Assembly: GCA_035630335.1 (NCBI GenBank) | Contig: DASQKV010000053.1 | Coordinates: 12,063 to 76,062, forward strand | Direction of reading: 5' to 3' | Length of the DNA stretch: 64,000 bases | Origin: Thermoleophilaceae bacterium | GTDB taxonomy: Bacteria > Actinomycetota > Thermoleophilia > Solirubrobacterales > Thermoleophilaceae | Shown here: positions 42,431 through 53,353 of the stretch, piece by piece | How the letters are laid out: the number at the start of each line of letters is the position of its first letter | How positions within the stretch are numbered: position 1 is the first letter of the stretch | Made by a program: the position numbers and the translations under genes | The notes under the pieces: generated by a model | The model's input: only the letters and a program-made list of their open reading frames with translations | Told to the model about the DNA's origin: nothing | The model's database searches: none

Positions 42431-43015
42431 CTAAGCCGCGACGGCGGAGTCAAGGGTCACGAGCGCAAGATAGTTGCGCAATATGACCTTGCCCTCCGGG
42501 CGGAACTCGACGTGCGCCTGGAGCCCGTAGGTGGGCCGCTCGGCGTGCCGGATTCCCTCGGTGTGGCAGTCGTCGCCCCAGGCGATTCGCCTGAACCCCT
42601 CGGGCACGTCCATCAGCTGGTAGCGGTGGCGCTCGAACAGCAGCGCCGGGCTCTCGAGGTCCTCGAACAGGACCTCCTCGCCGTCCATGTGGACGGGCGT
42701 CTTGCCGACGGCGTGCTTGCAGTCTCCGATCCCGACGCCGTGCGCCTTGCCGATCAGGTGCATGCCGCCGCAGATCCCCAGCAGCGGGATCTCGGCGTTG
42801 CGGATCAGCTCGAGCTCTGCGTCGTAGACGTATGGGGTGGTCGACGGGACGTCGGTGCCGGTGAGCACGATGCCGTCGTAGCCGCCCTCGTCGACGATCT
42901 CCGGGTAGAGCTCGCCGAGCGAGACGATCGTCGTCTCCGCCCCGAGGTTTTCCAGCCGCTGCGAAAGCACATCGGTGGAAAGACTCCCGTTATCGACGAT
43001 CATGATGTGTGGCAC
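42431..43015 (-). CDS. Class I glutamine amidotransferase-like / peptidase C26-like protein
   Basis: Nucleophile elbow LLGICGGMHL. His-Glu pair in GLQAHVEF. SD ggaggga sits 6 nt before GTG 43015 (ATG 43003 is an alternative). Confidence 0.8.
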   Translation of the reverse strand: MPHIMIVDNGSLSTDVLSQRLENLGAETTIVSLGELYPEIVDEGGYDGIVLTGTDVPSTTPYVYDAELELIRNAEIPLLGICGGMHLIGKAHGVGIGDCKHAVGKTPVHMDGEEVLFEDLESPALLFERHRYQLMDVPEGFRRIAWGDDCHTEGIRHAERPTYGLQAHVEFRPEGKVILRNYLALVTLDSAVAA

Positions 43016-43067
43016 TGGTGCTCCCTCCAAGCACTCGCTTACCTTGTCCTGCTGGTCCTGCCTTGCG

Positions 43068-43958
43068 TCAGCCGGTTACTGGCACGCCCTCCGCGGCAGT
43101 CTCGGCTCGATCTCTCACGACCATCCCGGTCGCGACTACCTGCACCGTGCCCGTCATCGTGAGCACGTCTCCATCCCACTCGACCTGGATCGCACCGCCC
43201 GGCTGGCGGACGTAGCCGCCGCCGATCGGGCGGCCGGCCACGCGCTCGGCCGCGATCGCGGCCGCGGCGGCGCCGGTTGCACAGCCGCGCACGGGGCCGA
43301 CGCCGCGCTCCCACGGAGTCACGGTCAGCCCACCGTCGCCGTCGTGCGAGGCGAACATCACGTTCGTGCCGCCCGGGCGCGTGTCGCACAGCGCCGCCCC
43401 GGCGGCGGCGACGTCGTCGCCCGCCGGGCGCGGGCCGAACACGATCAGGTGCGGCACGCCGAGCTCCATCTGCACGACGCGTCCGCCCTCGCCAACCTCG
43501 AGTATCGGGTCGGCCGGGAGCGGCATCTCGGCGCGGAACGTCCACGGGTCGCGGTCGAGCAGCACGTGCTCGACCGACGCCCCGGAGCTGACCACCGTGA
43601 CGGCGTCGCCCGGAGTCAGCCCGTCGCGCTCGCAGATCAGCGCGGCCGCCGCGCGGGCGCCGTTGCCGCACCAGGCGGCCTCCGAGCCGTCGACGTTGAA
43701 CACGCGCATGTGGTGCGTGACGGTGTCCGGATCGCTGTCGATCACGATCAGGCCGTCGCCGCCGAGGCCGCGGATGCCGTCGGCAATCCAGCCGGCGGAC
43801 GCGATCGCGCCGGGCTGGGCCTCGAGCAGAACGTACGAGTTGCCCTCGGCGTAGCACTTCCAGAACGGCAGCCGATCAACGCCGTCGCGCGGCTCCTCGT
43901 CGAGCAGCGGCCGCGCGGCCACCGGGCGCTCCTGATACCGCACCTGGGCGTCGCTCAC
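43068..43958 (-). CDS. Diaminopimelate epimerase (DapF)-family protein
   Basis: Two catalytic-Cys motifs, AAWCGNGARAAA and VRGCATGAAAAA. GTG 43958 overlaps the upstream TGA (GTGA). It is the 3' part of track ORF 43068..45053. Confidence 0.85.
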   Translation of the reverse strand: MSDAQVRYQERPVAARPLLDEEPRDGVDRLPFWKCYAEGNSYVLLEAQPGAIASAGWIADGIRGLGGDGLIVIDSDPDTVTHHMRVFNVDGSEAAWCGNGARAAAALICERDGLTPGDAVTVVSSGASVEHVLLDRDPWTFRAEMPLPADPILEVGEGGRVVQMELGVPHLIVFGPRPAGDDVAAAGAALCDTRPGGTNVMFASHDGDGGLTVTPWERGVGPVRGCATGAAAAAIAAERVAGRPIGGGYVRQPGGAIQVEWDGDVLTMTGTVQVVATGMVVRDRAETAAEGVPVTG

Positions 43959-51965: not shown

Positions 51966-53150
51966 ATGGATGACGTCGGAGGCCGCGGCGCGGCCCTCGC
52001 CAGTCCGAAGATCTCAGATGCGACGCTGCGCGACACGGCCCACATGGCCGGCGTCGCCTTCGACGTCGACGACGCGCGGGTCCTCGCGGGCCTGCTGTGC
52101 GACGTGGGCGTCGACATCGTCGAGGCGGGAATCGTCTCGGCGAACGACCGCAGCGAGGTGCCGCTCGTCCAGGCCGTCGTTGACGTCGCCGGGCGCGAGC
52201 GGACCAAGACGGTGATCCTCGCGCGCTCGCGCAAGCAGGTCGAGGCCGACCTCGACGCCGCGCTCGAGACGGGCGCCGGCAACGTGATGCTGTCGATCCC
52301 GACCTCGCCGACGCACGCGCTGCTGAAGCTCGGCACCGACAGTCGCCAGCGGATCGTCATGCTCGCGCGGCGCACGATCGAGGCCGCCGCCGCGGTTGGG
52401 CTCTCGGTGACGTTCACCGCCGAGGACGGGGCGCGGACCGATCCCGCGTTCCTCGAGGAGTACGTCGCCGCCGGCGCCGAGGCCGGCGCCGACCGCTTCC
52501 GCCTCGCGGAGACGGTGTCCTCGCTCGCCCCGCGCGACGTCGAGTCGCTGATCGCGCGGCTGGTCGCTGTCTCCGGCGACACCGAGGTCGAGATGCACTC
52601 GCACAACATGCTCGGCCTGTCGGTGGCGAACACGCTCGCCGCCGTCGATGCGGGCGCGGCCTGGGTGTCGTGCACGATCGACGGGCTCGGCGAGCGCGGC
52701 GGCAACACGCCGCTGGCCGAGGTCCTCTGCGTGCTGCACGTCCTGCGCGGAGTCGACCGCTACAACCTGCAGCCGCTGACCGAGCTGTCGCGCGAGGCCG
52801 CCGCCCGCGCCGGCCTGCGCTCGAGCGCCACCACCGGCCCGACGGCCGAGCTGAGCTACCAGTACGAGATCCCCGGCCAGGTGCGCAACCCGGGCGCGTT
52901 CGAACTGCTCAAGCCCGAGACGGTGGGCAACACGCGCGGCGTGCGGATCGGATCCCGGCTCAAGCCCTCGCTGCTGGAGGCGTTCCTCTCGCCGGAGACG
53001 CTCGACGGCGTCGACGTCGAGGAGGTCACCGACCGTATCCGCGAGAGCGCTCCGCACGACAAGCACGTCTGGGACCTCGAGACGCTCGACGAGCTCGTGC
53101 GCGCACACCGTCGCGAGCAGCAGGCGTCGCCCCCGACGTCAGTCCGGTAA
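51966..53150 (+). CDS. HMGL-like (homocitrate/isopropylmalate/citramalate synthase family) enzyme with a variant N-terminal motif
   Basis: SD ggaggg precedes ATG 51966. ISDATLRDTAHMAGV sits where this family normally has D.TLRDGEQ. HSHNMLGLSVANTLAAVDAGAAWVSCTIDGLGERGGNTPLAEV is the canonical family motif. Confidence 0.8.
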   Translation: MDDVGGRGAALASPKISDATLRDTAHMAGVAFDVDDARVLAGLLCDVGVDIVEAGIVSANDRSEVPLVQAVVDVAGRERTKTVILARSRKQVEADLDAALETGAGNVMLSIPTSPTHALLKLGTDSRQRIVMLARRTIEAAAAVGLSVTFTAEDGARTDPAFLEEYVAAGAEAGADRFRLAETVSSLAPRDVESLIARLVAVSGDTEVEMHSHNMLGLSVANTLAAVDAGAAWVSCTIDGLGERGGNTPLAEVLCVLHVLRGVDRYNLQPLTELSREAAARAGLRSSATTGPTAELSYQYEIPGQVRNPGAFELLKPETVGNTRGVRIGSRLKPSLLEAFLSPETLDGVDVEEVTDRIRESAPHDKHVWDLETLDELVRAHRREQQASPPTSVR

Positions 53151-53182
53151 CCGAACCCAACCCTGGAAGCGGAGGTAGCTGA

Positions 53183-53353
53183 ATGCAAGGCATCTGTCCC
53201 GAGTGCGAGTTCGACTTCACCACTCCCGAGCTGGAGACCGGCGAGACGATCGTCTGTCGCGAGTGTCAGCTGACGCTCCAGGTCCGCGGCCAGGAGGGCG
53301 AGGTCCTCGTGCTCGAGCCGGTCGAGGCCAGCCTCAGCGACTGGGGCGAGTGA
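53183..53353 (+). CDS. lysW: LysW-type amino-group carrier protein (56 aa)
   Basis: Not in the ORF track because it is under 60 aa. SD ggaggt 6 nt upstream. MQGICPECEFDFTTPELETGETIVCRECQLTLQVRGQEGEVLVLEPVEASLSDWGE. It has a CxxC...CxxC zinc ribbon and the hallmark C-terminal DWGE. I translated it codon by codon, in frame to the TGA at 53351-53353. Confidence 0.85.
   Translation: MQGICPECEFDFTTPELETGETIVCRECQLTLQVRGQEGEVLVLEPVEASLSDWGE

Follow-up and report, generated by a model that had tools for sequence, protein, structure and literature searches.

What is a LysW-family amino-group carrier protein (AmCP) doing among enzymes that the textbook LysW pathway does not use? The question is raised by a stretch of 64,000 nucleotides from Thermoleophilaceae bacterium (assembly GCA_035630335.1, contig DASQKV010000053.1, positions 12,063 to 76,062; the window hereafter). 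In it, lysW and LysX-, LysY- and LysZ-like genes adjoin genes for an HMGL-like enzyme, two class-I pyridoxal phosphate (PLP) enzymes (AT1 and AT2), an ATP-grasp enzyme of the L-amino-acid ligase (LAL) type, a glutamine amidotransferase (GATase) and relatives of DapF and LysA. The original prediction for this locus held that it builds a LysW-tethered diamino-dicarboxylate, a lysine analogue or lysine by a new route, rather than running the textbook pathway. The gene set and its genomic contexts support this, while the product can only be predicted. The region is, with a probability of roughly three in four, a portable and uncharacterised AmCP cassette that makes a non-proteinogenic lysine-like or diaminopimelate (DAP)-like diamino acid for specialised metabolism. 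The cluster in the Thermoleophilaceae would then be a copy of this cassette and not a system for textbook lysine synthesis.

The window has a G+C content of about 71%, and the genes were therefore called from third-position G+C (GC3 frame plots), followed by translation and scans against Pfam and NCBIfam. Every component named in the original prediction was recovered (Table 1). Nine tightly packed genes occupy 42431-51758 on the minus strand and are transcribed in the order LysA-like, LysX, LysY, LysZ, AT2, LAL, AT1, DapF-like and GATase. Of the eight junctions, seven show a stop/start overlap: GTGA at 50448-50451, 45103-45106 and 43955-43958, an overlap of 8 nt at 47496-47503 and one of 32 nt at 46328-46359, all as listed before, and two that had been given as ATGA but read differently, the junction at 49558-49561 being GTGA followed by ATG and that at 48413 being TGATG with a 1-nt overlap. 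The lysX, lysY and lysZ genes do lie in one minus-strand operon as proposed, but lysW and the gene of the HMGL-like enzyme lie on the plus strand, diverging from it, and a leucyl-tRNA synthetase (LeuRS) gene begins 10 nt after lysW. A promoter and terminator scan of 39.5-57 kb gave counts at chance level.

Among the scanned open reading frames (ORFs) of the window, the unscanned ones all being under 300 aa, there is no Aminotran_3 (LysJ), M20 (LysK), aconitase-like or transketolase gene. The claim that the cluster is without LysJ, LysK and homoaconitase therefore extends to the window, and lysJ and lysK were not found beyond the cluster's edges there, a location that would have spoken for the ordinary pathway. 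The homoisocitrate dehydrogenase (HICDH) of the canonical LysW pathway has no counterpart in the cassette, and neither dapA nor dapB was found in the 64 kb. LysJ and LysK are also missing from the homologous cassettes examined, which are those of Dactylosporangium, Amycolatopsis, Streptosporangiaceae, soil contigs and Streptomyces echinatus. Transketolase is likewise absent from the related cassettes, and the sole thiamine pyrophosphate enzyme of the window (18008-20050) lies at a distance of 22 kb and does not share the cluster's conservation.

With one genome per species scanned, eight loci in metagenome-assembled genomes (MAGs) of Thermoleophilaceae/Solirubrobacterales showed the same genes in the same order, with 60-90% protein identity. 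The order HMGL-LysW-LysA-LysX-LysY-LysZ-AT-LAL-AT-DapF-GATase recurs in Dactylosporangium salmoneum (GCA_039532525.1, BAAARV010000019.1, about 233.5-243.8 kb), a Streptosporangiaceae MAG and Amycolatopsis anabasis (GCA_009765355.1), the last found through a homologue of the HMGL-like protein, and on three soil contigs, one of them flanked by nonribosomal peptide synthetase (NRPS), MbtH and Streptomyces antibiotic regulatory protein (SARP) genes. At these further loci the flanks include MFS/EamA exporters, P450s, an extra ATP-grasp enzyme, a reductase, TetR/LuxR/SARP regulators, MbtH and AMP-binding genes. This patchy, portable distribution, together with flanks typical of biosynthetic gene clusters, suggests a sub-cluster of specialised metabolism.

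A shorter version is found in S. echinatus (GCA_020400685.1, JAINVI010000013.1), the only Streptomyces context examined, where HMGL-LysW-LysX-LysY-LysZ-GATase is followed by an ELFV dehydrogenase and an AMP-binding enzyme. There is therefore a six-gene core, HMGL-LysW-LysX-LysY-LysZ-GATase, of which the window carries an extended 11-gene form. Many Streptomyces, Kitasatospora, Nocardia and Nocardiopsis carry homologues of the HMGL-like protein with about 50% identity. A different cluster, in Paenibacillus kobensis (GCA_004000825.1), reuses only the trio of DapF-like, LysA-like and LAL proteins. There the trio is joined by a SerRS-like protein (tRNA-synt_2b, 361 aa), a PP-binding carrier, two acyl-CoA-dehydrogenase-like proteins, a second ATP-grasp enzyme, an MFS transporter and a thioesterase.

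The AmCP products known in December 2024 were listed as lysine, arginine/ornithine, compounds derived from (2S,6R)-diamino-(5R,7)-dihydroxy-heptanoic acid (DADH), and s56-p1 only (PMC11726168). A literature search found no paper on the 11-gene set, subscription journals lying outside that search so that an earlier description is possible, and no description of the short S. echinatus type of module. An assignment of homologous clusters to ordinary lysine synthesis, which would have undone the original prediction, was thus not encountered, and the contexts are of the biosynthetic gene cluster type.

The window LysW, a 56-residue protein with a C-terminal DWGE as first described (its last residues are SDWGE), aligns end to end with Thermus thermophilus LysW (PDB 3WWL, E 8.8e-7). 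Its zinc ribbon, with CPEC at residues 5-8 and CREC at residues 25-28, is invariant among all cassette LysWs. It scores under the curated cut-offs (Pfam PF21344, 18 vs 27 bits; NCBIfam NF041070, 33 vs 75; TIGR01206, 23.5 vs 53) and so is to be seen, from its alignment, as a divergent member of the AmCP family. The small ORF is conserved, with 84-91% identity in seven related loci and 50-59% in distant cassettes; a lack of conservation would have told against the original prediction. The LysW of three lineages out of seven (Dactylosporangium, a soil cluster and S. echinatus; Table 1) ends in DWGQ, not DWGE. The attachment residue is there encoded as Gln, and such a LysW needs deamidation before a substrate can be attached to it. 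All three of these clusters contain the GATase.

In each version of the module, this GATase is the sole enzyme of amidase type. The motifs of its Cys-His-Glu triad, GICGG and QAHVEF (QAHxEF), are invariant in seven lineages (Pfam E 4e-21). An invariant triad, the lack of any other amidase type and the Gln-ended LysWs make the GATase a fitting substitute for LysK, and it is likely, on these motifs and associations, to be a LysW gamma-glutamyl amidase. It had been described as GATase/C26-like. The class-I GATase part of that description stands (PF00117, with the triad), but the window protein matches only PF00117 and not PF07722 (Peptidase_C26). The S. echinatus orthologue has a recorded PF07722 match, which, like the DWGQ terminus of its LysW, fits a LysW gamma-glutamyl amidase.

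Five residues set the specificity of LysX, being F182, I192, T203, N258 and S259 in Thermus LysX and I, Y, V, G and F in the ArgX type (2025, PMC12998189). In a residue-level alignment the window LysX reads L-M-I-G-V, against I-Y-V-G-F for ArgX and F-I-T-N-S for LysX, so that the signature of the alpha-aminoadipate (AAA) type is not present. It carries the ArgX-like WRAN...LG segment rather than WITN...RGG, and its best PDB match is the ArgX of Sulfolobus (S. tokodaii). The LysX proteins of other cassettes have F/I/M, Y/I, L/V, G/A and any residue at the five positions. By these signatures the window LysX is ArgX-like, with a Glu-type pocket, and is predicted to load an amino-dicarboxylate onto LysW; signature and structural match together point to glutamate or a similarly short amino-diacid rather than AAA. 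LysY holds the active-site Cys in GCFAT. The best NCBIfam match of LysZ is the [LysW]-aminoadipate/[LysW]-glutamate kinase, at 94 bits and under the cut-off.

The HMGL-like enzyme differs in its motifs from homocitrate synthase (HCS). The motif TLR(D/E)G(E/N)Q, universal in homocitrate and isopropylmalate synthases (IPMS), reads TLRD(T/S)AH in all seven lineages. In the window, ISDATLRDTAH aligns with ISDVTLRDGSH of DmpG, giving an RDxxH motif whose histidine matches His21 of DmpG, which is catalytic there. The metal ligands are kept (ExHxHN). The 2-oxoglutarate-binding Arg of HCS, in VRFS (VEFS in IPMS), is replaced by Thr in VTFT, and the catalytic HKAGxH segment of HCS by YQYEIPGQ in the window and (Y/F)xYEIxGQ across lineages. 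This conserved (Y/F)xYE segment lies at a position similar to that of the DmpG catalytic Tyr291, with no alignment to DmpG obtained there. Neither the C5-carboxylate-binding Arg/Ser nor the HxxGxH of homocitrate synthases was found, and in view of these active-site motifs a homocitrate synthase feeding the AAA pathway is rejected. The RDxxH match to DmpG and the missing Claisen-type motifs lead to the reading of this enzyme as a predicted aldolase that would join a metal-bound 2-oxo acid, namely pyruvate, to the LysW-semialdehyde. Its gene is always accompanied by one for an enzyme that aminates 2-oxo acids, an aminotransferase here and an ELFV amino-acid dehydrogenase in the place of AT2 in the Streptomyces variant. 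This constant partner fits a 2-oxo-acid product.

The other PLP enzyme, AT1, has the PDB matches 3OP7, 8FFT (GntC) and 4M2J, the last presumably OrfR, and in sequence it is closest to the clade of PLP cyclodehydratases formed by GntC, VioD and OrfR. Enzymes of the GntC/OrfR type act on hydroxy amino acids, and an aldol addition followed by amination would give AT1 just such a substrate. The LAL has weak NCBIfam matches to BacD, DdaF and PylC. Translation shows that the LysA-like and DapF-like proteins keep their catalytic residues, with both catalytic Cys motifs, WCGNG and GCATGA, in the latter. As both also score above the cut-offs for the true DAP enzymes, the intermediate released from LysW is probably a diamino-diacid resembling DAP, of C7 with aspartate as the loaded substrate and of C8 with glutamate. 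It would be epimerised, decarboxylated to a lysine- or homolysine-like amino acid, and ligated by the LAL.

A complete sequence of steps can be proposed, for which the chances are at best a little better than even; its substrates, step order and product are predictions throughout. The ArgX-like LysX would attach glutamate, or perhaps aspartate, by its alpha-amino group to the last Glu of LysW, LysZ would phosphorylate the distal carboxylate and LysY would reduce it to the LysW-bound semialdehyde. The HMGL-like enzyme, as a DmpG-type aldolase, would combine this aldehyde with pyruvate to give a 4-hydroxy-2-oxo acid, whose 2-oxo group AT2 (the dehydrogenase in Streptomyces) would turn into an amino group. 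AT1 would then process the gamma-hydroxy amino acid by elimination or cyclisation. The GATase would hydrolyse the gamma-glutamyl amide and so free the product, and would also deamidate the Gln-ended LysW variants. One alpha-centre would be inverted by the DapF-like, PLP-independent epimerase and decarboxylated by the LysA-like enzyme, and the LAL would probably ligate the resulting diamino acid to another amino acid, giving a dipeptide.

Parts of this scheme are familiar from other systems. The LysW pathways of Thermus, Sulfolobus and Thermococcus share with the cassette the LysW zinc ribbon and DWGE terminus, the LysX/ArgX ligase, LysZ and LysY. They have LysJ, LysK, homoaconitase and HICDH, all lacking from the cassette, and their HCS has the 2-oxoglutarate Arg and HxxGxH that the HMGL-like enzyme does not. 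The LysA-like, DapF-like, LAL, GntC-like and GATase enzymes, and the Gln terminus of some LysWs, are in turn additions of the cassette. In the DADH type of biosynthesis, extension begins from glutamate: a split transketolase, acting as a pair, forms the C-C bond on the LysW-bound glutamate semialdehyde and contributes a C2 unit. The DADH-type AmCP clusters (vazabitide A, ficellomycin, azinomycin B, s56-p1; PMC11726168) resemble the cassette in having been recruited into actinomycete gene clusters and in extending a LysW-semialdehyde by a C-C bond before amination. They differ in that the cassette is predicted to use a DRE-TIM aldolase adding a C3 2-oxo acid, a GATase for release, an epimerase/decarboxylase pair and an aminotransferase of another class.

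Another parallel is DmpG/DmpF (BphI/BphJ). DmpG, a 4-hydroxy-2-oxovalerate aldolase, has the same DRE-TIM fold and RDxxH motif as the HMGL-like enzyme. DmpF is its acylating aldehyde dehydrogenase partner, with a Semialdhyde_dh-type NAD domain, and in the cassette the corresponding domain of LysY would handle the aldehyde. The cassette enzyme is predicted to work in the synthetic direction on a protein-tethered aldehyde, formally DmpF/DmpG run backwards. The enzymes nearest to AT1 are GntC (guanitoxin), VioD (capreomycidine) and OrfR (streptolidine). The substrate predicted for AT1 is likewise a gamma-hydroxy alpha-amino acid, but not an arginine-derived one, and AT1 scores far under the GntC and VioD cut-offs (Table 1). 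Tabtoxin is also made with paralogues of DAP enzymes (the LysA-like TabA) and an L-amino-acid ligase, giving a dipeptide antimetabolite; it branches from tetrahydrodipicolinate via a DapD-like acyltransferase, without a carrier protein.

Several observations weigh against a specialised-metabolite cassette of this kind. In the Thermoleophilaceae the cluster has no exporter and is kept clade-wide next to housekeeping genes. The LysA-like and DapF-like proteins pass the NCBIfam equivalog cut-offs of the true DAP enzymes. The aldolase models of NCBIfam give the HMGL-like enzyme 61-65 bits against cut-offs of 229-286, and globally its sequence is nearer to HCS/IPMS than to DmpG. The closest PDB structure to the GATase is subunit A, the glutaminase subunit, of an archaeal GMP synthase, and the enzyme could instead deliver ammonia to an ATP-grasp partner. 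The LysX signature does not, at the level of these residues, separate C4 (Asp) from C5 (Glu) loading.

The first two of these observations would be explained if the Thermoleophilaceae had a new primary route to DAP and lysine. Aspartate would be protected on LysW, LysZ and LysY would stand in for LysC and Asd and the aldolase for DapA, and DapB, DapD and DapC would be replaced by amination through AT2, removal of the hydroxyl by PLP gamma-elimination through AT1 and a second action of AT2. The GATase would release the product in place of DapE, with DapF and LysA finishing as usual. The chemistry balances without a reductase, and the cluster is beside leuS in every tier-1 context examined. Even so, this route is unlikely. 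It leaves the LAL without a role, and in Dactylosporangium and Amycolatopsis, which possess a normal DAP pathway, the cassette sits beside exporters, P450s, SARP regulators and NRPS parts. Two sets of LysA-like homologues can be told apart, a close-knit clade with at least 79% identity and then unrelated taxa at 44-54%, and the nearest relatives outside the clade are in the same cassette or another gene cluster rather than among the housekeeping genes of neighbouring Solirubrobacterales.

Neither orthology with the lineage's housekeeping copies nor the usual DAP gene context was found for the LysA-like and DapF-like genes. That the two might be the organism's DAP-pathway copies had been raised with the original prediction; the relatives of LysA, being cassette copies in unrelated actinomycetes, speak against it. 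The distribution of homologues does not support a housekeeping role, which is still a possibility for the genome as a whole.

Table 1. Positions of the cassette genes and their neighbours in the window, and of the LysW homologues ending in DWGQ at other loci
Feature	Position	Strand	Basis
GATase	42431-43030	-	Pfam GATase
DapF-like epimerase	43068-43958	-	TIGR00652, 122 bits vs cut-off 114.7
Class-I PLP enzyme AT1	43955-45106	-	NCBIfam GntC, 248 bits vs 415; VioD, 226 vs 391; both under cut-off
LAL-type ATP-grasp	45103-46359	-	Pfam ATP-grasp_4 + LAL_C2
Class-I aminotransferase AT2	46328-47503	-	Pfam Aminotran_1_2, E 3.5e-45
LysZ-like kinase	47496-48413	-	Pfam AA_kinase
LysY/ArgC-like reductase	48413-49561	-	TIGR01850, 331 bits vs cut-off 234
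LysX/RimK-like ATP-grasp	49558-50451	-	Best PDB match S. tokodaii ArgX, 3VPB
LysA-like PLP decarboxylase (fold type III)	50448-51758 (alternative start 51695)	-	TIGR01048, 346 bits vs cut-off 298
HMGL-like (DRE-TIM) enzyme	51966-53150 (alternative start 51882)	+	Pfam HMGL-like, E 9e-54
LysW, 56 aa	53183-53353	+	Full-length alignment to Thermus LysW, 3WWL
LeuRS, HVGH and KMSKH intact	53364-55772	+	leuS_bact, 420 bits vs cut-off 548
Degenerate LeuRS paralogue	40123-42162	-	Alignment; no HIGH, zinc insertion or KMSKS; leuS_bact, 221 bits vs 548
tRNA-like RNA, 204 nt, anticodon UUC	42169-42372	-	Rfam RF00005, 35.5 bits vs gathering 29 (match on 3' two-thirds)
DWGQ-ending LysW, Dactylosporangium	L013:9796-9972		
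DWGQ-ending LysW, soil cluster	L032:9769-9945		
DWGQ-ending LysW, S. echinatus	L035:11269-11454		

In the Thermoleophilaceae the cassette is bracketed by an active LeuRS on one side and by a tRNA-like RNA and a dead LeuRS on the other. Homologues of the active LeuRS at 52-57% identity (P0045, P0053, P0088) in housekeeping contexts share its HxGH, KMSKH and degenerate CP1 editing domain. The LeuRS after lysW is therefore probably, as far as these orthologues indicate, the normal housekeeping enzyme of the lineage rather than a cassette-specific paralogue. All tier-1 LeuRS copies examined adjoin the cassette. The LeuRS of Solirubrobacterales are short (about 730-800 aa), have FTxHxDA in CP1 in place of the canonical motif, presumably TTRPDT, and are named by NCBI only as 'class I tRNA ligase family protein'; to judge from this motif, LeuRS editing may have been lost in the order. 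The dead LeuRS, directly downstream of the tRNA-like RNA, is kept across the clade as an intact high-GC3 ORF (about 35-68% identity).

Twenty distinct homologues of the tRNA-like RNA were collected; apart from the window, the RNA was seen at loci L001-L008, L014 and L016-L029 in our numbering. Its fold is a complete cloverleaf, in which the acceptor stem has 7 bp, the D stem is GCUC/GAGC, the variable loop has 4 nt and the anticodon arm is joined by the T arm ACGGG-UUCGAGU-CCCGU. After G18G19 the D loop takes in an additional branched domain of about 130 nt. Over 17 aligned Thermoleophilaceae sequences its 54 pairs are 99.7% paired, with six covarying pairs against 0-1 in slid controls, and none of 500 shuffles reached the observed values. 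ARAGORN finds nothing, and Rfam gives no match besides tRNA even at E<=1, which disposes of a T-box, tmRNA or other known family. Three types exist: UUC beside the cassette (Thermoleophilaceae), CCU between the cassette and ArgRS (soil contig L014), and UUG directly downstream of LeuRS without the cassette (L026, L028). The discriminator is A in the UUC and UUG types and C in that of L014.

The RNA is probably not part of the portable cassette, being absent from L013 and L030-L035 and found beside LeuRS without the cassette elsewhere. It is always beside class-I aminoacyl-tRNA synthetase (aaRS) genes of Thermoleophilia, and its absence from the other actinomycete cassettes ties it to these aaRS genes of the lineage. 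It is not a general leader of Solirubrobacterales leuS, since it is missing after leuS in L009 and L010, and the remnant of an island integrated at a tRNA would not account for a covarying insertion in one intact cloverleaf.

For two of the three RNA types, the cognate codon is specifically depleted (window genes and loci L002-L029; Fisher p 6e-12 to 8e-5). At UUC-type loci GAA makes up 1.7% of Glu codons (89/5131) and CAA 6.9% of Gln codons. At UUG-type loci the values are 7.8% for GAA and 0/169 for CAA, and at control loci 7-20% and 7-8%, respectively. AGG is not depleted at CCU-type loci. The two lower-GC ORFs of the window (25769-33414) have GAA in 0/101 and CAA in 17/88 cases, and the single GAA of the HMGL-like gene is at an invariant Glu.

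It might be asked whether the system includes the aaRS genes and the RNA. Either the product would be a LeuRS inhibitor, with the active LeuRS as the resistant copy and the dead paralogue as the one displaced, or the product or an intermediate would be carried on the expanded tRNA. The Thermoleophilaceae cassette is always bracketed in the way described, and on soil contig L014 the cassette ends at the homologous RNA, followed by ArgRS. This involvement is nevertheless improbable. Five other lineages have the cassette with neither an aaRS nor the RNA, and in L026 and L028 the RNA stands beside LeuRS with no cassette; the peculiarities of the LeuRS are common to its housekeeping-context orthologues; and no aminoacyl-tRNA-dependent transferase is present.

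Still less probable is a mixed supra-operon without a common pathway, in which LysW/X/Z/Y make ornithine and arginine as in Sulfolobus, LysA and DapF are DAP genes, the HMGL-like enzyme is LeuA or CimA, and leuS is simply co-transcribed. The ArgX-like signature of LysX, the closeness of leuS to lysW and a nearby IleRS that passes its equivalog cut-off all agree with it. It does not explain why the 11-gene order is kept in distant actinomycetes without leuS, why no equivalent of LysJ/ArgD or LysK/ArgE is present, why the HMGL-like enzyme lacks the Claisen-condensation motifs, or why stop/start overlaps tie the genes together. A pyrrolysine-like unit of cassette, expanded-D-loop tRNA (UUC), active LeuRS and dead LeuRS, placing a non-canonical amino acid on the tRNA for insertion at the GAA codons, now nearly lost, or as a tRNA-bound donor, would agree with the constant bracketing, the union of cassette, RNA and aaRS in L014 and the depletion of the codon matching the anticodon, but is very hard to credit when cassette and RNA are each found without the other and the only GAA of the HMGL-like gene falls at an invariant Glu.

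Other features of the window touch the cassette less directly. The IleRS (36067-39609, plus strand; 1180 aa) is extended by about 130 aa at its N terminus, carries DUF5915 at its C terminus, scores above the ileS equivalog cut-off, and adjoins the dead LeuRS only in this genome. The region 25769-35100 is of lower G+C (62-67%) and holds two very large minus-strand ORFs, one of 1131 aa without a Pfam match and one of 1417 aa with NHL repeats; with several more ORFs lacking a family match, it may be foreign DNA. At 56529-62770 on the plus strand, two paralogous XRE-type helix-turn-helix (HTH) genes precede five tandem TetR-family genes, two of them with a double TetR_N. These regulators hold 8 of the 19 GAA codons of the window, and HTH and TetR genes also come after LeuRS in locus L012.

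A new phenomenon, separate from the cassette, may lie in the expanded tRNA and the codon depletion linked to it. As for the cassette, AmCP chemistry is known so far for lysine, arginine and the DADH family, and a second widespread family would be added to these. If the proposed scheme is true, it would bring new solutions to AmCP biosynthesis: an aldolase in place of transketolase extension, a GATase in place of M20 release together with a Gln-ended LysW, and a recruited DapF/LysA pair for converting a diamino-diacid to a lysine-like amino acid. The cassette is present in culturable Dactylosporangium and Amycolatopsis, and in its short form in S. echinatus, so that the product and the steps are open to direct tests. 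The product may act as an antimetabolite in lysine or DAP metabolism.

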